Assembly (NCBI GenBank): GCA_918244965.1
Contig: CAKJYC010000016.1
Location: forward strand, 8,526-72,525
DNA length: 64,000 nucleotides
DNA from: Clostridiales bacterium
GTDB lineage: Bacteria > Bacillota > Clostridia > Christensenellales > CAG-138
Direction: 5' to 3'
Shown here: positions 40,390-54,282 of the stretch, in pieces
Layout of the letters: each line of letters begins with the position of its first letter
Position numbering within the stretch: position 1 is the first letter of the stretch
The notes under the pieces: model-generated
The model's input: only the letters and a program-made list of their open reading frames with translations
The model's database searches: none
What the model was told of the DNA's origin: nothing
Made by a program: the position numbers and the translations under genes

Positions 40390-42738
40390 TTACCCGTTTA
40401 CTGCATTGCCCGATTGATCCATGATCGTCATCGACCTTGCGAACGCAAAGAACAGATACGTCAGTTCGGATTCGTCCGCTTCCTTACAAAGAAATTGCAC
40501 CAGATAGAAGGCCGTATCTCCCTTGAATGCAAAGTTCCAACCGCACATGCCGTTTCTGCGATAGCGATAGAAGATCAGCCCGTCCCGTTCCTCCGGCTGT
40601 GCATCGGAATTGTTGTTCCGGATCACGTTTTCCATGTACTCTGTCAGCGTTTCGTCCGCAAGCCCGGCTTTCAGCGTAAACGGTTCGACCTTGATCATGA
40701 CCGCGCCGAAATAAGACGTGTAGTAGCCGTCGAAGCCCATCTCGCTCTTCTGCTCGCTGAACTGTTCGGTCAGCGTGATCTGATAGCCGTCTCCGGCAAA
40801 CACCTTGCTTTTTCCGTACTTGCCGTTCAGAATATCGCTGTCATCCGGCGCAAAATCTCCGTTTATCTCCACAAACTGTTTTACAATGCTGTCAAAGTCC
40901 GCCGTGCCTTCCTCCGTCAAAGAGGAGGCGGAAAGAAACAGGATGTTTGTACCGATGGTATTCAGCTTTGCTATGCAGATATAGGAATCGTAATTCCTGT
41001 TATAATAATGCACGCTCACAATGCCCGGTGCGATCTCAACAGATTCCGCCGTATCGAAGTCCTCCGGCTTATCATCCCATCCGTCCGCTGTAAGATACCA
41101 GGTCAGAAGGTCCTTTCCGTTCAGCATGCTTTCCGCGACCAGATAATAGTCCATATCCGTAAGTCCGACCGTTTGCAAGGCGTCCATATCAAGCTCCAAA
41201 AGCGCTTTTTCCGTTGCGGAGAGCTTTTGATCCTTGTTCGCCTGAATCTCGAATGTTTCCGGGAACAGGCAGGAATACCCCTGCCATTTCTGCGTTTTCA
41301 GTTGAATCTCCGATTCGCGGTAAAGCACATACAGATACCAGTCGCCCCAAAGCGGCTCAATCGCGTCCCGGTATGCCTCGGCAAACTGCTCCTGCGCGTT
41401 TTCCGTGTGGATCAGCCACACCTCGTATGCGGACTGTGCTTCGTCTCTGCTTTCGGGCATCGTCACAACAAAGCACGGCTCCGAATCCTTTGCAAACGGA
41501 TGACCCGGTTCATATCGAAGCAGCCGCCCTTCCCAATAGATGGTGACGCCCTTTTCTTTGGCTCGCGCAGCCAATACCTGCAATTCCGACGGCAGCTTCG
41601 TGATTTCCACTACGGCACGCATATCTTCGTACGGACGTTGATACGACCCTCTTCCATCCTCATCGATCATCAAATCCAGATAGTATCCGGGATTTTTGGT
41701 TCTGGCGCTCTCCAACAGCTCCCGATTCTGCTCAAAGAATGCCCGCATCTGTGCGGTCTGCTCCGTCCGTCCGGTCGGCTTTGCCGGATAGCCGTTCATC
41801 TGAATGAACGCATACACCAACCGGTCATACAGATCGATCCCCGTTTCCGTCGCCGCCAAGGCGTACAGAATCAGTCCCTTCGTTCCGTCGGTGCCGACCT
41901 TTGCGTAACACAGGTAGCCGTCGTCATACTCCACATGGCGGCATACCACATCCGGATAGACCGTCCGTGCGGAGTGCAGCACGGCATTTTCATCGGAGGC
42001 GCCCGATCCGGTGTTGTTCAGCACAACGTCGATCTGCTCGCGCAGCGGCGTCGCATCCCAATCGTCAAATGCTTCCTCCGGCCGCAGTCCGTATACGATG
42101 CTCGGAAGGTCCTTCGCATCTTCTTCGTTTTTCGGAAGGAACATGATAATGTTCGGAACATCATACAGGACGTCGTACTCTGCGATCATCAGGCAGCGAT
42201 ATCCGTTCCAGGTAAATGCCTCAGTCTGTATCTCCGGCAGCTCTTCGACCGGCGTCAGCGGCATCCCGCCCGGTGCGGGGCCGGGTTCGCTTGTTGCGGG
42301 CGGTTCCTGCTCCGTCGGCAACACAGGCGCGTCCGTCGTCTGCGGCGGTACCTCCTGCGGCTTCGGTTCATGCGTGTCGTTCAGCTCCGCCATCGGCTCC
42401 GAGGGCGCGCCTTCGCCCTTTTTCGATCCACGGAACAGGCCGACGCCGAACACCAGACCGACGATGCAGGCGATCGCGACGGCGGCCATGCCGTAGCTGA
42501 GGACCCGGCTGAACCGCTTTTGCGGCCGCGCGGGCTGCTGCGGTTCGACGGGCGCGGCAACGGTCGCTGATGCGGATGTATTCGGTTTGGCCTTCTGTTT
42601 TCCGTACAGCGCCGTTTCAAAGCGCGCCTGCGACGCCGCGGGGATCGGCTCGGTTTCCGGATGCAGCAGATTGCCCTGCGCTTCGGCGTCCTTGCGCACG
42701 GCGTCACGCAGCAGTTTTTCAAAGGATCGTTTCCGCAT
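40390..42738 (-). CDS. Single-pass membrane protein, putative anti-sigma factor with a large repeated extracytoplasmic domain
   Basis: ATG at 42738 with AAGGAGG 6 nt upstream, overlapping the sigma gene end by 20 nt. Short cytoplasmic N-terminus, one TM helix (GMAAVAIACIVGLVFGVGLF), a Pro-rich linker, then about 640 aa of repeated modules. Confidence 0.6.
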   Translation of the reverse strand: MRKRSFEKLLRDAVRKDAEAQGNLLHPETEPIPAASQARFETALYGKQKAKPNTSASATVAAPVEPQQPARPQKRFSRVLSYGMAAVAIACIVGLVFGVGLFRGSKKGEGAPSEPMAELNDTHEPKPQEVPPQTTDAPVLPTEQEPPATSEPGPAPGGMPLTPVEELPEIQTEAFTWNGYRCLMIAEYDVLYDVPNIIMFLPKNEEDAKDLPSIVYGLRPEEAFDDWDATPLREQIDVVLNNTGSGASDENAVLHSARTVYPDVVCRHVEYDDGYLCYAKVGTDGTKGLILYALAATETGIDLYDRLVYAFIQMNGYPAKPTGRTEQTAQMRAFFEQNRELLESARTKNPGYYLDLMIDEDGRGSYQRPYEDMRAVVEITKLPSELQVLAARAKEKGVTIYWEGRLLRYEPGHPFAKDSEPCFVVTMPESRDEAQSAYEVWLIHTENAQEQFAEAYRDAIEPLWGDWYLYVLYRESEIQLKTQKWQGYSCLFPETFEIQANKDQKLSATEKALLELDMDALQTVGLTDMDYYLVAESMLNGKDLLTWYLTADGWDDKPEDFDTAESVEIAPGIVSVHYYNRNYDSYICIAKLNTIGTNILFLSASSLTEEGTADFDSIVKQFVEINGDFAPDDSDILNGKYGKSKVFAGDGYQITLTEQFSEQKSEMGFDGYYTSYFGAVMIKVEPFTLKAGLADETLTEYMENVIRNNNSDAQPEERDGLIFYRYRRNGMCGWNFAFKGDTAFYLVQFLCKEADESELTYLFFAFARSMTIMDQSGNAVNG

Positions 42739-43273
42739 AGCCGTCCTCCTTGCAGAATTGCAGCACCGCACGGCGCGCACGCGTCAGATACACGCGCACC
42801 GTGTTCTTCGAGACGCCGAGCGCCTTTGCGATCTCGCCGTCGCGCAGTTCCAAAAGATACTTATACCGCAGCACGTCCCGAAGGCTCTCCGGAAGCTTAG
42901 AAACCGCGCGCTTGACCTCCTCGACGGTCAGGCTGTTGATCGCGCGCTCCTCGACCGACGCCGACGTGTCGCCGATCTCGATCTCCTCGATCGGAACGCT
43001 CGCCTGCCTGCCGCGCTTTTGCAGCCGATTCAGCGCGTTTCGCTTGACCGCGGTGATCAGATATACCGCCCGCGCGGCTTCCGGCAGCGCGCGCAGCGTG
43101 TCGATTTTGCGGATGCAGCGCACAAACGTGTCCTGCACGGCATCCTCCGCCGCGCTCGGTTCGCGCAGGATCGCAAGCGCCGTGCGCTTCATGCGGTGAT
43201 AGTTCGACGCGAACAGCTCGCTCATCAGCGCGCGATCCGATTCGCTATCCAAAACCAGTAACAGTAGAATCAT
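42719..43273 (-). CDS. ECF-type RNA polymerase sigma-70 family factor
   Basis: Region 2 (AEDAVQDTFVR) and region 4 HTH (LRDGEIAKALGVSKNTVRVYLTRAR). The first ATG is at 43273. The GTG at 43306 is an alternative start. Confidence 0.8.
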   Translation of the reverse strand: MILLLLVLDSESDRALMSELFASNYHRMKRTALAILREPSAAEDAVQDTFVRCIRKIDTLRALPEAARAVYLITAVKRNALNRLQKRGRQASVPIEEIEIGDTSASVEERAINSLTVEEVKRAVSKLPESLRDVLRYKYLLELRDGEIAKALGVSKNTVRVYLTRARRAVLQFCKEDGYAETIL

Positions 43274-43336
43274 CGTGGTACAGCCCCCCTGTTGCCCTCT
43301 ATACACATAGACAAGCGTGCGGCCAAAAGTGCTACA

Positions 43337-46206: not shown

Positions 46207-46336
46207 CAAGAATCCCTGAAGAGCATATCCTGCCTTTCGCCCCGTTTTTTGTCGAAATCTCGCCGTTCATGCTTGTTTTTTGGCTGTCGGCGTGCTATGA
46301 TAGAGGGGCAAACAAGAGATGGAGGAATTGATCGAA

Positions 46337-47077
46337 ATGAAGATCGCGATCATCGGCGGTACCAATATCGAGAAGCTCCCGATCCGTTACCGGGAGCAGG
46401 CTGTTTCCACCCCCTACGGCGACGTTGTTGTGTTTCGCGGCACGCTCAAGGAGGGCAACGAGGTCATCTTCCTGTCCCGTCACGGCGTTTTGTACGCACA
46501 CGATCCGGGCGACATCAATTACCGTGCCAACGTCTTTGCCCTGCACCAGATCGGCGTCACCCATGCGATCAGCGTCACGTCCGTCGGTGCTTGCGACTAT
46601 TCCCTGCGGCCCGGCGAATACTGCCTGATCAATGACTTTATGGACTTCACGAAGGGCCGCGCGTCCTCATTCGAACGCGAACACCGCGCCACGCTGCACA
46701 CCGGCATGGAGAACGTCTTCAGCGATACGCTGAACAGCACGCTGGAGGAACTGATCCGTCAGCTCGGCCTGCCCTATTCCGGCCGCGCAACTTACGCCTG
46801 CACGGAGGGTCCGCGCTTTGAGACGGCGGCGGAGATTCGCGCGCTGCGCACGCTCGGCGCACAGGTCGTCGGCCAGACGGTCGTCCCGGAAGCGCCGCTG
46901 TGCCGTGATCTCGGCATCGAATATGCCGCACTGGGCCTCATCACCAACTACTGCACCGGCATGACCGGCGTCGTTACCGACGTCGTGATCGAGCACGTCA
47001 TGGACGAAAACCGCGAGGACATCTTCCGGCTGTGCTTCGATCTGATTCGCCGCATGACGACATACGCCCAAGACTGA
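46337..47077 (+). CDS. mtnP: S-methyl-5'-thioadenosine phosphorylase / purine nucleoside phosphorylase family
   Basis: MKIAIIGGT...FLSRHG...INYRANVFAL...SVTSVGA...TEGPRFETAAE match the MTAP family. The start could instead be the ATG at 46319. Confidence 0.8.
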   Translation: MKIAIIGGTNIEKLPIRYREQAVSTPYGDVVVFRGTLKEGNEVIFLSRHGVLYAHDPGDINYRANVFALHQIGVTHAISVTSVGACDYSLRPGEYCLINDFMDFTKGRASSFEREHRATLHTGMENVFSDTLNSTLEELIRQLGLPYSGRATYACTEGPRFETAAEIRALRTLGAQVVGQTVVPEAPLCRDLGIEYAALGLITNYCTGMTGVVTDVVIEHVMDENREDIFRLCFDLIRRMTTYAQD

Positions 47078-47093
47078 ATCATTGAAATAAATT

Positions 47094-47136
47094 ATTGTCA
47101 GAAGCTATTGACAATCCAATCCTTCCATGTTATTAT
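47094..47136 (+). promoter_or_regulatory. Promoter with an overlapping inverted-repeat operator upstream of the small peptide gene
   Basis: TTGACA (47108-47113), 17-nt spacer, TATTAT (47131-47136). Inverted repeat ATTGTCA (47094-47100) N8 TGACAAT (47109-47115) overlaps the -35. The region is distinctly AT-rich. Confidence 0.55.
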
Positions 47137-47199
47137 TGCTATGATTGAAAGGGTAAAAAGCCTTAAAGTTTTATTCGGGAGATAAGGAGAATTCAACTG

Positions 47200-47301
47200 A
47201 TGGAACAATATGAAAAGCCGAGCATGGAAATCATTGAATTGACGAACAGCGACATTATTACCGAATCGTGTGATGCTCGTATGCCGGAAGTTGGAGGTTG
47301 A
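47200..47301 (+). CDS. 33-aa candidate RiPP precursor peptide
   Basis: Not in the ORF track (under 60 aa). Manual translation: MEQYEKPSMEIIELTNSDIITESCDARMPEVGG. AAGGAGA RBS 9 nt upstream. It sits directly upstream of a radical-SAM/SPASM enzyme and a PqqD-like protein. It has an acidic leader-like N-terminus and a single Cys near the C-terminus. Confidence 0.6.
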   Translation: MEQYEKPSMEIIELTNSDIITESCDARMPEVGG

Positions 47302-47335
47302 CAGTCAACGATTGACTGACATTCAGACTTTTTTT

Positions 47336-47361
47336 GCGGTATGCGTTTTTGCGCATACCGC
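47336..47361 (+). promoter_or_regulatory. Intercistronic hairpin between the peptide gene and the maturase gene
   Basis: 10-bp stem GCGGTATGCG/CGCATACCGC, preceded by a T7 run (47329-47335) and a smaller hairpin CAGTCAAcgaTTGACTG (47302-47318), and followed by pyrimidine-rich ACTTCTTTCC. Confidence 0.5.
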
Positions 47362-47381
47362 ACTTCTTTCCTGAGGCGTTT

Positions 47382-48704
47382 ATGCACGTGATCCACCCCG
47401 CGGACCAAAACGTTCGCCGACTTTTGCCGCACGTCAAGCTGCAGGCGGGCATGCGCTGCGTCCCGTCGCAGTATGCCCTGCCCTTTTCGCACGACGGCAG
47501 ACTATATCTTTTTCACACCTTGACGAAGGAATGCGTCGAGGCGGTCCTTCCCGCGTCCGCTGTGCCGGGCGAGGGCTTTGACGAGCTGATCGAAGCGCGC
47601 TTTCTGGTGCCGGAGGGCACGGACGAATGCGCGCTCTATCTGTCCGTTTCGCAGATGCTCCGCGCCTTTTCCGCGCCGAAGGGCGTTCCGTCCTACCTGA
47701 TCCTGCCGACGCTGGCCTGCAACGCGCGCTGCACCTACTGCTATGAAGAGGGACGCACGCCCGTGACAATGACGCCGGAGGTTGCAGATCAGGTCGTACA
47801 ATATATCGTGAAAACGCACGGCAAGCCGCCCGTCAAGCTCGATTGGTACGGCGGCGAGCCGCTGCTCTGCGAAGGGATCATCGACCGCATCTGCGAAGGG
47901 CTAAAGGATGCGGGGATCGAATTCCGGTCCAAGATCGTTTCCAACGGCAGTCTGATCACGCCGCGCATTCTCGAAAAGATGCGGACCGATTGGAATCTCA
48001 AATCCATTCAGATCCCCATGGACGGCGCTGAGCCGGACTACATTGCGCGCAAGCGGTACTGTCGGGAAGCGGATCACTATCATGCCGTGCTGAACGCGAT
48101 CGACCGCATGTCCGAGGCAGGCATCCATGTCGCCGTGCGCTGCAACGTGGATCAGAACAACATTGCAGGCGTTCCGGATTTTCTGAACGACCTTTCACGC
48201 TGCATCACGCACAGGGAAAACGTGTTTGTGTATCTGAGCCCGCTCTATTATGCGGATACGCTCGATCACGATCTTGAGATCTGGCAGCAGATGATCGCGC
48301 TGCGCGAGCCGATCGAACAGGCGGGCTTTCAGCGGCTTCCGTATAAGGGCTTGCACATGCAGTTTCGCACCAACTACTGCATGGCGGACGGCGGCGGCGT
48401 CGCGATCGGTCCCGACGGCGGTCTGTTCCCGTGCGACGGCTGCCCGGAGGAGGCCCGGTTCGGCAATGTATTCGACGGCGTGACCGACGCGGAGGCAAAA
48501 AAACGCTTCTGCCGCACGGACCGCGTGCGGGAGATGTGCCGCAAGTGTCCGTTTTTACCGGAATGCACGAGCTTTTCTTCGTGCCCATGGCGCGCACCGC
48601 ATTGCCGTGAGGTACGCACGCTTCTTGCGCAGGACGACCTGTGCCGCATGATCGACAAACAAACCGCGTCCGAACCGGCGGAGTCCGCGTTTTCGAACTG
48701 CTGA
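47382..48704 (+). CDS. Radical SAM / SPASM-domain peptide-modifying enzyme
   Basis: CNARCTYC (Cx3Cx2C) radical-SAM cluster motif. The C-terminal SPASM-type Cys pattern is CMADGGGVAIGPDGGLFPC...CRKCPFLPEC...C. A roughly 110-aa N-terminal domain (LYLFHTLTKECVEAV...ARFLVPEGTDE) resembles peptide-recognition domains of sacti/ranthipeptide synthases. ATG at 47382 is chosen because the TTG at 47334 lies inside the hairpin. Confidence 0.8.
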   Translation: MHVIHPADQNVRRLLPHVKLQAGMRCVPSQYALPFSHDGRLYLFHTLTKECVEAVLPASAVPGEGFDELIEARFLVPEGTDECALYLSVSQMLRAFSAPKGVPSYLILPTLACNARCTYCYEEGRTPVTMTPEVADQVVQYIVKTHGKPPVKLDWYGGEPLLCEGIIDRICEGLKDAGIEFRSKIVSNGSLITPRILEKMRTDWNLKSIQIPMDGAEPDYIARKRYCREADHYHAVLNAIDRMSEAGIHVAVRCNVDQNNIAGVPDFLNDLSRCITHRENVFVYLSPLYYADTLDHDLEIWQQMIALREPIEQAGFQRLPYKGLHMQFRTNYCMADGGGVAIGPDGGLFPCDGCPEEARFGNVFDGVTDAEAKKRFCRTDRVREMCRKCPFLPECTSFSSCPWRAPHCREVRTLLAQDDLCRMIDKQTASEPAESAFSNC

Positions 48705-48716
48705 GGAGGAATAAAA

Positions 48717-48977
48717 ATGAAGCTCAAAGATCAACTTCTGGTCCATACGATCGACGATACGCAGTTTTTAGTGCCGCTCGGCGGAGAGGCGTTTTCCGGG
48801 ATCGTGCGCAGCAACAAGACTGCCGCGTTCATCGTGGATTGTCTCAAGGAGGATACCTCGGAGGATGCGATCGTCGACGCAATGTGCAGTCGTTACAATG
48901 CCCCGCGCGCAGTCATTGCGGACGACGTGCACGAGATCCTGAAAATGCTCCGACGCATTGATGCAATAGAAGAATAA
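48717..48977 (+). CDS. PqqD-family peptide chaperone (RRE-like)
   Basis: 86 aa, GAGGAGG RBS. The size and pattern (TQFLVPLGGEAFSGIVRSNKTAAFIVDCL...SEDAIVDAM...YNAP...DVHEILKML) fit PqqD/MftB-type small proteins. Confidence 0.65.
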   Translation: MKLKDQLLVHTIDDTQFLVPLGGEAFSGIVRSNKTAAFIVDCLKEDTSEDAIVDAMCSRYNAPRAVIADDVHEILKMLRRIDAIEE

Positions 48978-48987
48978 CACGTGTATG

Positions 48988-49025
48988 CAAAACCCGGCCT
49001 TCCGTTCGGAAGACCGGGTTTTTCT
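48988..49025. terminator. Bidirectional terminator
   Basis: AAAACCCGG-CTTCC/GGAAG-CCGGGTTTTT stem-loop between convergent genes. Confidence 0.75.
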
Positions 49026-49034
49026 GTGTGTTGA

Positions 49035-50627
49035 TTACAGGATCTTCAAAGACTGCTGCTTGCCGTCGAGCGTCCAGCGAAGCGTAAGGCCGTCGTCGGC
49101 GTCAACCGAGACGTCGGTCGCGTTCTCCGTGAGGCTGCGGACATGCGCAAACTGGTTCTTCTGCGCATCGGTGTAGGTATTCAGCGCGTCCGAGGTCAAA
49201 AGCATGCCGCCGAGCAGCGCATTGACCGTGTAGAGCTTCTCCTTCTCCTCCGGCGTCAGCTGACAGTTCTGCTCGCGCAGGAAGAACACGTCCGGATCGC
49301 CCATGAACGCGCGGCCGGTGAGCTGGCGGCGGAAGGTCGTGTCCTCGATGGACTGCTTGGTGGAGACGCGCTCGCGGTGCGTGATCTGCATCAGCTTCGA
49401 GCCGTTCCAGTCGAGCCCGACGTCGCAGCCCACACGGCAGTATTCGACGACGCCGAACGCAGGCCACAGCGGCACGCCGCAGCCTAAGATCAGCTTGCCG
49501 CGGCACGCCTTGCGGAGAATGTTCATCGCGCGGCACATGCGCGCGGCTCTCGATTCGGTCTCGCTGCCGAACGGCGCGGCGCCGTACAAAAAGTCGAGCT
49601 TGACGAGATCGAAGCCCCATTCGTTCAACACGCGGTCGAGCACCTTGTTGACATACGCAACGACCTCCGGATTGTCGATGTCGAGCGAATAGAAGCCGCC
49701 CCAGTTCGAGCCGTCCGACCACGGCTTTCCGTCATGCTTGTACAGCCAGTCCGGATGCTCCTCCATGATCTTCGAGCCCTTCTGGCACACGAACGGCGCA
49801 AGCCAGAGCCCTGCGCGGAAGCCCGCCGCATGGATCGCATCGGCCGCGGTCTTGAGCCCGTTCGGGAACTTGTTCGCGTCCGGCACGAGCCAGTCGCCGA
49901 CCGCCGTCTCCCAGCCGTCGTCGATCTGGAACAGATCATCGGGCCGCAGCAGCGCTTTTGCGCCGACGAGGTCATCGGTGATCGTCGCGTCGTTGATGTC
50001 CTGATAGCGGTTGTACCAGCTCGAATAGCCGAACAGCTTCCGATCGGTCAGCGGACGCACGTCCATTGCGGCAAACCAGCCGTCAAAGACCTCCTGCTCC
50101 GTGCCCTCGGCGATATAGAGGTCGAACGCGTGGAACTCGCCGTCGGCCTTCATGCCGACGCAGTCGCGCTCGATCAAAAGCTCTCCCTTGTTCGCGTCGT
50201 ACTGAAACAGCGTGTAGCCGGGGATCTCATCGAGCGAACCGAACAGCAGAAACTGCTTGCCCGTGCGCAGGTAGCACCAGGACTCGCCGTGCGTGATGCC
50301 CTTCTTGTAGGGATAGTTGACAAAGTGATAATCGCCGTAGCGGTTGATCCCGAACGCCCCGCGCAAAAAGCACGGCAAGTGCTTCATGCCCTTCGTGCGG
50401 CCGGTCCGGTCGTATTCGGGGCTGTACGTCCAATTCTGAAAGCCGTTGTGGAAAATGCGCATTGCGTCCGTCGCAGGCAGCGCAACCGTCGCCGTGACCT
50501 TTTTCAGCCGCGCGTTTTTCAGCGGTACGCGCACATGCACGACGCCGTTCGCAGCGACGCTGCCGGTGATCGGCGCGCCGTTTTCCGTTTCCACGCAGTA
50601 GCGCAGCATCCGTTCCGTGTTTGCCAT
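49035..50627 (-). CDS. Alpha-galactosidase-like glycoside hydrolase (GH36/clan D type)
   Basis: 530 aa. FQIDDGWE, VKLDFLY and GCDVG motifs resemble the catalytic core of the GH36 subgroup. Confidence 0.6.
   Translation of the reverse strand: MANTERMLRYCVETENGAPITGSVAANGVVHVRVPLKNARLKKVTATVALPATDAMRIFHNGFQNWTYSPEYDRTGRTKGMKHLPCFLRGAFGINRYGDYHFVNYPYKKGITHGESWCYLRTGKQFLLFGSLDEIPGYTLFQYDANKGELLIERDCVGMKADGEFHAFDLYIAEGTEQEVFDGWFAAMDVRPLTDRKLFGYSSWYNRYQDINDATITDDLVGAKALLRPDDLFQIDDGWETAVGDWLVPDANKFPNGLKTAADAIHAAGFRAGLWLAPFVCQKGSKIMEEHPDWLYKHDGKPWSDGSNWGGFYSLDIDNPEVVAYVNKVLDRVLNEWGFDLVKLDFLYGAAPFGSETESRAARMCRAMNILRKACRGKLILGCGVPLWPAFGVVEYCRVGCDVGLDWNGSKLMQITHRERVSTKQSIEDTTFRRQLTGRAFMGDPDVFFLREQNCQLTPEEKEKLYTVNALLGGMLLTSDALNTYTDAQKNQFAHVRSLTENATDVSVDADDGLTLRWTLDGKQQSLKIL

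Positions 50628-53148: not shown

Positions 53149-54282
<1,134 letters not shown>

Follow-up and report, generated by a model that had tools for sequence, protein, structure and literature searches.

A three-gene cassette encoding a 33-residue peptide, a radical S-adenosylmethionine (SAM)/SPASM enzyme and a separate PqqD-like protein occupies positions 47094-48977 of a stretch of Clostridiales bacterium DNA (contig CAKJYC010000016.1) 64,000 nucleotides in length, the whole of which is called the window here. It is very probably a functional cassette for a peptide that is made on the ribosome and modified after translation (a RiPP), matured by a radical-SAM enzyme in dependence on a RiPP recognition element (RRE). 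The fuller statement, that it is a minimal, intact RiPP cassette, one of a large unnamed family from the Clostridia of gut and rumen, and that its product carries a Cys thioether, is considered probable as a whole; for the thioether by itself the chances are about even. Gene content, the conservation pattern, the cluster-binding motifs, fold similarity and purifying selection were established directly.

An open reading frame (ORF) of 33 codons is by itself no evidence of a gene. For an independent check, 77 peptides from other genomes, with neither the window nor its closest relative among them, were made into a leader hidden Markov model (HMM), which was compared with all of the window's 1537 six-frame segments. 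The 33-residue ORF was the sole match (E = 3.1e-14, 49 bits), the second-best segment having an E value of 1.5, and it is therefore a member of the peptide family and not a chance frame. A first-pass annotation of this DNA had proposed the peptide as the substrate of a RiPP pathway, with an N-terminal leader and a C-terminal core; the leader match and the co-conservation with maturases described below support this, and the division into leader and core holds across the family, in which the N-terminal 22-23 residues are conserved and the C-terminus is hypervariable. The conserved part reads M-[E/K]-x-Y-x-K-P-x-[M/L]-E-[V/I]-[I/V]-x-[L/I]-x(2-4)-[D/N]-[V/I]-[I/V]-x-[T/A]-S, with T-S (or T-x-S) kept at the leader-core junction.

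The cores vary in sequence and in length (8-57 residues); G, D, C, P, T and S abound in them, and their composition is strongly acidic (D+E 17.6% versus K+R 2.4%). Cys is present in ~95% of 84 unique cores (four lack it, a regex mis-split of the window's own peptide having been set aside), and the first Cys stands at core position 1-3 in ~70%; D or E is two-fold enriched at Cys+3. The window core, CDARMPEVGG, is among the shortest in the family and belongs to a sub-type C-x3-[M/L]-P-[E/P] found in 14 of the 221 retrieved family peptides, its own included. The corresponding segments are CDARMPEV in the window, CDTEMPEL in locus L082, CDTQMPEL in L083, CPTKMPE[LVM] in several metagenomic peptides and CPEQMPEA in peptide P0236. 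The closest relative, L080, has the core GCDQESPEV; the Gly-Gly ending, to which attention had been drawn earlier, is thus not a family-wide feature. Precursors with a Cys-less core were seen at L014:3220-3339, L045:2859-2975, L020:355-477 and L061:223-324 and in P0150, P0265, P0313 and others; such cores have an acidic composition with much G, P, T and W.

Homologues of the enzyme number 232 (~440 residues, 46-73% identity) and are mostly metagenomic. A locus survey restricted to one genome per species gave 79 loci encoding enzyme relatives, nearly all from Clostridia; very many come from rumen metagenome-assembled genomes and some from gut and other samples, and isolates such as Sarcina sp. 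DSM 11001 and Ruminococcus sp. YRD2003 are among them. One or more peptides with the same leader are encoded in 69 of the 79 loci, always on the strand of the enzyme gene and either just 5' of it or just after the PqqD gene; many relatives have two or three paralogous precursors per locus. The PqqD gene is found in 61 of the 79, nearly always directly downstream of the enzyme gene. The small ORF is thus conserved beside orthologous maturases, as the reading of the first-pass annotation requires. The nearest relative, L080, shares 73% enzyme identity and has the same three genes in the same place after an MTAP gene.

Searched exhaustively against 1.84 billion cluster representatives, the leader profile gave 981 matches at E ≤ 0.001 (~1000 clusters at 50% identity), nearly all of 30-60 residues and matching at the N-terminus. 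One of these, P0233 (1129 residues), was rejected as a false positive, being an Ig-like repeat protein. Where a source name accompanies the matched peptides it is 'hypothetical protein', and none has a Pfam domain; three different peptide members gave no match in Pfam and NCBIfam release 20. That the system fits no named family had been suspected from the sequence, and indeed neither these three peptides nor the enzyme reach the cut-off of any NCBIfam model. Searches of the open-access literature returned no description of the family.

Both Cys motifs reported for the enzyme are there and complete. CNARCTYC is the CX3CX2C motif C113/C117/C120 (47718-47741), and the SPASM region (C333-C408, 48378-48605) contains seven Cys in the arrangement C333-x12-G346-x4-C351 and C386-x2-C389-x5-C395-x5-C401-x6-C408. 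The radical-SAM and SPASM cluster residues are invariant across 25 homologues, in which C354 is near-invariant and no other invariant Cys occurs from C120 to C333; this pattern would fit an auxiliary cluster I with one coordination site left open, as in CteB. Pfam recognizes Radical_SAM (E = 4e-15) and SPASM (E = 1e-3). A TTG start at 47334 was rejected, as it lies within a hairpin and the homologues begin at the ATG at 47382.

An AlphaFold2 model of the enzyme (mean predicted local distance difference test score 85, predicted template-modelling score 0.84) was compared with known structures using Foldseek. The best match was CteB (5WGG), which forms the thioethers of thermocellin, aligned over the full length (E = 9e-16, template-modelling score 0.59, 18% identity), followed by TigE (8VPO; E = 2.5e-14), the anaerobic sulfatase-maturing enzyme (anSME), SkfB and SuiB, all at 13-18% identity; a profile search of PDB sequences gave the same order (CteB hmmsearch E = 1.5e-18). 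Among the NCBIfam models the enzyme scored 118 bits with TIGR04463, 107 with Clo7bot, 94 with PapB, 86 each with geopeptide and CefB and 42 with anSME. The best-scoring models are all maturases of Cys-rich peptides, and their cut-offs of 340-600 bits are far off; on these scores the enzyme is a distinct, unnamed clade among RiPP-type SPASM enzymes. It does not group with the anaerobic sulfatase maturases (42 bits versus 118, 107 and 94 for the peptide maturases), in keeping with its initial assignment. A separate domain, modelled with confidence, takes up residues 1-100. This domain was considered as an RRE and rejected, since its only match to the PqqD alignment in hhalign was a short (Q/R)FLVP-x-G segment of ten residues (enzyme residues 71-80, PqqD residues 14-23; probability 7.6%); the shared segment could be due to chance or could be a common docking strand.

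The 86-residue protein had been described as PqqD-like, an assignment that Pfam bears out (PqqD, E = 2e-13). No other part of the system is as well conserved (mean column identity 74%). By sequence its closest solved relatives are the lasso-peptide leader binders TbiB1 (5V1U; E = 6.6e-7, full length) and TfuB1, and its best NCBIfam model is lasso_PqqD_Strm (33 bits). Lasso leaders have a conserved YxxPxL motif at -17 to -12 and a penultimate Thr (PMC10368454), and the leader of the present family begins with the lasso-type motif Y-x-x-P-x-[M/L]. We propose that the leader docks as lasso leaders do, extending the RRE sheet by one strand while pockets take up Tyr, Pro and Leu/Met. L064:5371-6156 encodes a natural fusion of PqqD with an S24 peptidase (261 residues; PqqD E = 7e-16, Peptidase_S24 E = 6e-6), and the peptidase is therefore functionally tied to leader binding. 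In L082:953-2737 (57% enzyme identity) two precursors and the enzyme are followed by a convergent gene instead of PqqD, so the RRE may be encoded elsewhere or be dispensable there.

The positions of all features are collected in Table 1. On re-reading the sequence, every element reported in the first-pass annotation was found in its place.

Table 1. Positions of the cassette features and adjoining genes in the window, and of recurrent features in related loci
Feature	Position	Strand	Remarks
MTAP/PNP-family gene	46319-47077		Precedes cassette
Inverted repeat ATTGTCA-N8-TGACAAT	47094-47100 and 47109-47115		Overlaps -35 hexamer
Predicted promoter, sigma-70 type	47108-47136	+	TTGACA-17-TATTAT with TG extension; 11/12 consensus matches
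5' untranslated region (UTR)	47137-47199	+	Ribosome-binding site (RBS) AAGGAG, 47184-47189, 10 nt before ATG
Peptide ORF	47200-47301	+	33 codons; reads MEQYEKPSMEIIELTNSDIITESCDARMPEVGG
Leader	47200-47268	+	Residues ~1-23; Y4-x-x-P7-x-M9 and ...D-I-I-T-E-S
Core	47269-47298	+	Residues ~24-33; CDARMPEVGG
Small hairpin TGACAGTCAA-N3-TTGACTGACA	47299-47321	+	Overlaps stop codon of peptide
12-bp GC-rich hairpin	47335-47362	+	T-rich tail to 47372; 20 nt before enzyme ATG
Radical-SAM/SPASM enzyme gene	47382-48704	+	440 aa from ATG at 47382
PqqD gene	48717-48977	+	86 aa; Pfam PF05402, E = 2e-13
Terminator hairpin, A-/T-flanked	48989-49028		Common to cassette and melibiase gene; stem 49004-49019 scored
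Melibiase gene	49035-50627	minus	Convergent with cassette
Intergenic stem, L080	302-326
Intergenic stem, L018 and L022	3956-3981
Intergenic stem, L047	3951-3976
Intergenic stem, L020	750-776
ScmC/HprK-like P-loop protein	Upstream		36 loci; ~250 aa, weak model matches
S24/S26-like peptidase with SMEP motif	Directly after PqqD		35 loci; fused in L064
NTP_transf_5	Variable		13 loci
ABC (ATP-binding cassette) exporter	Downstream		9 loci

The promoter and peptide region is AT-rich, as had been noted for the promoter, with 40-45% GC compared with ~60% in the surroundings. Both promoter hexamers are kept in L080 (TTGACA/TATCAT), and the 5' UTR with its RBS is nearly identical there. The inverted repeat over the -35 hexamer had been taken for a possible operator. 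It is present, but as a conserved operator it fails: in the syntenic relative L080 the left arm is missing and the right arm is merely the conserved -35 region. A perfect 7-nt repeat is expected ~0.1-0.3 times by chance in such an AT-rich spacer (a rough estimate), and because its left arm is not kept in L080 the repeat is probably incidental. The small hairpin at the peptide stop codon is likewise not kept in L080. The hairpin past PqqD has the A-run and T-run of the bidirectional terminator it was said to be, bidirectionality being read from the sequence.

The earlier annotation had overlooked a conserved hairpin that separates the enzyme gene from the peptide gene. It has a terminator-like score and a minimum free energy of -33.8 kcal/mol (z = -5.5). 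In L018, L022, L047 and L080 its stem GCGGTATGCG...CGCATACCGC recurs at ~20-25 nt ahead of where the enzyme gene starts, and in L020 it lies 89 nt before the start of a tblastn match that itself begins at enzyme residue 23. The palindromic stem sequence is nearly identical across genomes whose enzymes are only ~45-55% identical to that of the window, and such conservation is unusual for a plain terminator; the element may instead serve in RNA processing or as a DNA operator. At the same place other loci have strong but unrelated hairpins, and 37 of 55 precursor-enzyme spacers fold with z < -2. A partial terminator after the precursor gene is an arrangement found in other RiPP operons, and one standing between precursor and maturase would lead to surplus precursor transcript. 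No credible match was obtained in an Rfam scan of 46900-49200.

The following mechanism is proposed. A strong promoter would drive the precursor gene, and the hairpin beyond it would pass only part of the transcripts on to the enzyme genes. PqqD, which resembles TbiB1, would bind the leader through Y-x-x-P-x-[M/L] and the following beta-strand-like segment MEIIEL and hand the core to the radical-SAM/SPASM enzyme. Reductive cleavage of SAM at the C113/C117/C120 cluster would give a 5'-deoxyadenosyl radical, which would abstract hydrogen from a core residue, and the crosslink would be closed with the help of two auxiliary Fe-S clusters. The most likely product, at about even chances, would have one thioether ring of the sactionine or ranthionine type, linking the Cys24 sulfur to a residue of M28-P29-E30; sactipeptides have the sulfur bonded to the acceptor's alpha carbon, ranthipeptides to a carbon other than alpha. 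In relatives, the leader would be removed by the S24/S26-like peptidase encoded just 3' of PqqD and the product released by the ABC exporter. The thioether itself is hinted at indirectly, by the Cys in ~90-95% of cores and by the likeness of the enzyme to CteB and PapB.

Several points weigh against this reading. A core Cys is absent from 23 of the 221 family peptides (~10%), so a Cys thioether cannot be the universal chemistry of the family; the enzymes of the clade may differ in their chemistry, or else a residue other than Cys is modified. The window core itself departs from the weak C-x-x-[D/E] tendency, with Arg at +3. The enzyme shares no more than 18% identity with CteB, TigE is equally close, and its N-terminal 100 residues have no PqqD likeness in hhalign. 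No S24 peptidase or RiPP-type exporter was found within the 64-kb window. The promoter is predicted from consensus matches, the intergenic hairpin is a candidate partial terminator (attenuator) proposed from structure prediction, and the chemistry of the cassette, like the interpretation as a whole, is a prediction from sequence.

The same RiPP cassette may instead install something other than a thioether: a C-C or ether crosslink, perhaps starting from the conserved junction Thr/Ser, an epimerization, or a cyclopropanation of the TigE kind. We regard this as a serious but rather unlikely alternative. TigE, which is known to make cyclopropyl groups and not thioethers, is structurally as close to the enzyme as CteB is; in L014 and L045 the only precursors seen are Cys-less; acidic cores with much Trp occur (for example ...VPWWGGEGG); and no core residue comes near the conservation of the T-S dipeptide that precedes the core. 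On the other hand, 90-95% of cores have a Cys, mostly at the first core positions, the nearest family models all come from Cys-rich peptide systems, and the pairing of the Cys-less peptides with this enzyme clade is only presumed.

It is very improbable that the cassette is an orphaned remnant, stripped of its peptidase, exporter and ScmC-like genes, that yields no mature product any longer. The lack of the first two from the 64 kb would fit such a history, as would the rarity of the PqqD-only architecture, which is found in just three of the 47 loci with full flanks. Against it, the three ORFs are intact with all invariant residues in place, and L080 has the same minimal arrangement at the same locus, with its promoter, RBS and hairpin conserved. 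In a comparison of the window with L080, the ratio of nonsynonymous to synonymous substitution rates (dN/dS) came to 0.17 in the enzyme gene and 0.10 in that of PqqD. Because it is shared with L080 at these ratios, the minimal form of the window is seen as maintained under purifying selection and not as decaying.

The annotators had also mentioned a cofactor-type product. In a redox-cofactor pathway like that of PQQ or mycofactocin, the peptide would serve as an intracellular scaffold, to be crosslinked and trimmed for use. Such a pathway would match the minimal set of peptide, radical-SAM/SPASM enzyme and PqqD without export or immunity gene, and intracellular use would account for the absent exporter; it is nevertheless highly unlikely, since a cofactor requires an invariant core whereas the cores are hypervariable, often with two or three different paralogous precursors per locus, since relatives have a peptidase and ABC exporters, and since the window has no trimming or oxidoreductase genes downstream, PqqD scores 23 bits against a TIGR03859 cut-off of 46, and PqqE and MftC models are absent from the best 25 of 60 enzyme matches.

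Clustering of the ORFs adjoining the 79 loci brought out a modular set of accessory genes (Table 1), none of which lies within the window's 64 kb; the RiPP cassette of the window is the minimal form. Its lack of a protease and an exporter, reported in the first-pass annotation, stands for the 64 kb but not for the family, in which many relatives carry such genes. In its full form, seen in L083 and L084, the locus comprises NTP_transf_5, the ScmC-like protein, precursor(s), enzyme, PqqD, peptidase and ABC exporter. The PqqD-only form is shared with L080. From the small residues at -1 (the conserved Ser) and -3, and from the link to the peptidase, we infer a signal-peptidase-like cut after that Ser. 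The ScmC/HprK-like and NTP_transf_5 genes recur upstream of the precursor (for example L084:3009-4976 and L083:2540-3277), a pair that also goes with PqqD proteins in the uncharacterized SynChlorMet and HPr-rel-A cassettes and in some lasso clusters; the ScmC-like protein of relatives matches Pfam PF27840 weakly or faintly.

In six loci (L039, L046, L052, L055, L056 and L058) a gene for an oligosaccharyltransferase of the STT3/PglB/AglB type (~810 residues; 5805-8240 in L055) adjoins PqqD and the precursor. These genes match Pfam STT3 (E = 2e-26) together with the core domain, and the WWDDG motif was read in L055. N-x-S/T sequons are present in the cores of all five precursors identified in the six loci, compared with 12 of 89 elsewhere (Fisher p = 1e-4), which hints at N-glycosylated RiPPs in Clostridia.

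Around the cassette the window encodes MTAP/PNP, HAD, nitroreductase, MatE, melibiase, GH2 and MalK sugar ABC proteins. Two of these were considered as exporters and rejected: the MatE gene lies on the opposite strand, three unrelated genes off, and MalK (53149-54282) is the ATPase of a sugar importer. Elsewhere in the window, on the minus strand at 40390-42780 and 42719-43306, a gene for a sigma factor of the extracytoplasmic function (ECF) type (Sigma70_r2 and r4_2) is overlapped and followed by an ORF of 796 residues. The latter has no Pfam match at E ≤ 1e-5; its product may be a large protein of the anti-sigma kind or one of the cell surface.

New peptide chemistry comes in large part from radical-SAM RiPPs, and so do narrow-spectrum antimicrobials and signals in communities of the gut. 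The present family lies outside current mining, being missed by Pfam and NCBIfam. Because the ranthipeptide rule of antiSMASH keys on TIGR03973 (PMC13289728, rule table), that program would flag it at most as 'RRE-containing'. The window version is the smallest possible test system, and with three genes and a 10-residue single-Cys core its chemistry should be easy to solve. A larger proposal, doubtful as a whole, is that of a new RiPP class in which a lasso-type leader/RRE pair would have been recruited to a divergent radical-SAM/SPASM enzyme, with perhaps an undescribed crosslink, for example from Cys to the conserved Met-Pro-Glu segment, or from the junction Thr/Ser in Cys-less members, an unusual S24/S26-type leader peptidase and, in one sub-clade, N-glycosylation by STT3. 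That this family and the lasso peptides have their leader logic in common suggests a way in which recognition modules pass from one RiPP class to another.

Among the known systems, thermocellin/SCIFF (CteA-CteB; TIGR03973/TIGR03974) is similar in having a SPASM maturase with an N-terminal extra domain and a short Cys peptide in Clostridia, and CteB is the best structural match of the window enzyme, aligned over its full length. The window enzyme, however, reaches only 49 bits against the TIGR03974 cut-off of 425 (18% identity), the precursor does not match the six-Cys-in-45 peptide model, PqqD is separate, and the cores are hypervariable where SCIFF has a fixed six-Cys pattern. The closest experimentally characterized model is that of freyrasin (PapA-PapB; NF047865), with 94 bits over residues 110-401. 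PapA has Cys...Asp repeats, and the acidic, Cys- and Asp-rich cores of the family, with their weak C-x-x-[D/E] tendency, recall it; but 94 bits is far below the PapB cut-off of 340, the window core has a single Cys without a repeated motif, and the leader family and accessory genes are different. The scores with TIGR04463 and Clo7bot, 118 and 107 bits, likewise fall short of cut-offs of 525 and 600.

Lasso systems (TbiB1/TfuB1) share the PqqD sequence and the YxxPx[L/M] leader motif, as well as the HprK/ScmC-like protein, NTP_transf_5 and ABC exporter of the relatives, genes that are known from lasso clusters of Firmicutes. They differ in the modifying enzyme, which is of the radical-SAM/SPASM type here, and in the spacing from motif to core, and neither the window nor the recurrent neighbours in the 79 loci include an Asn-synthetase-like cyclase or a B2 transglutaminase-type protease. 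The SynChlorMet (Scm; TIGR04249-04251) and HPr-rel-A (TIGR04352/04353) cassettes, which are likewise uncharacterized, combine a radical-SAM/SPASM enzyme, PqqD and an HprK-like P-loop protein, and the upstream protein of the relatives matches ScmC weakly; the scores are nevertheless 39 of 400 bits for ScmE and 15 of 125 for ScmC, and the window has no ScmC-like gene.

A peptide, a radical-SAM/SPASM enzyme and PqqD also make up the architecture of PqqA/D/E and MftA/B/C. In contrast to PQQ, the window core has no Tyr and hence no Glu...Tyr pair, and PqqD stays below the TIGR03859 cut-off; in contrast to mycofactocin, the peptide ends in EVGG and not in Gly-Val-Tyr, and no Mft model is among the matches listed. 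From the anaerobic sulfatase maturases the system is separated by the TIGR03942 cut-off of 349 bits and by its dedicated peptide and RRE. The family belongs to none of SCIFF, PapB, TIGR04463, Clo7bot, Scm, PQQ, mycofactocin, anSME and lasso, because in each comparison a defining feature fails. In its working it would resemble the sacti- and ranthipeptide systems, with leader recognition of the lasso type. The cluster motifs, the RRE and the leader/core precursor of the general class of RRE-dependent radical-SAM/SPASM RiPPs are all present. What is new here is thus the family; the kind of system is a well-known one, its architecture and general mechanism being those of known RRE-dependent radical-SAM RiPPs.

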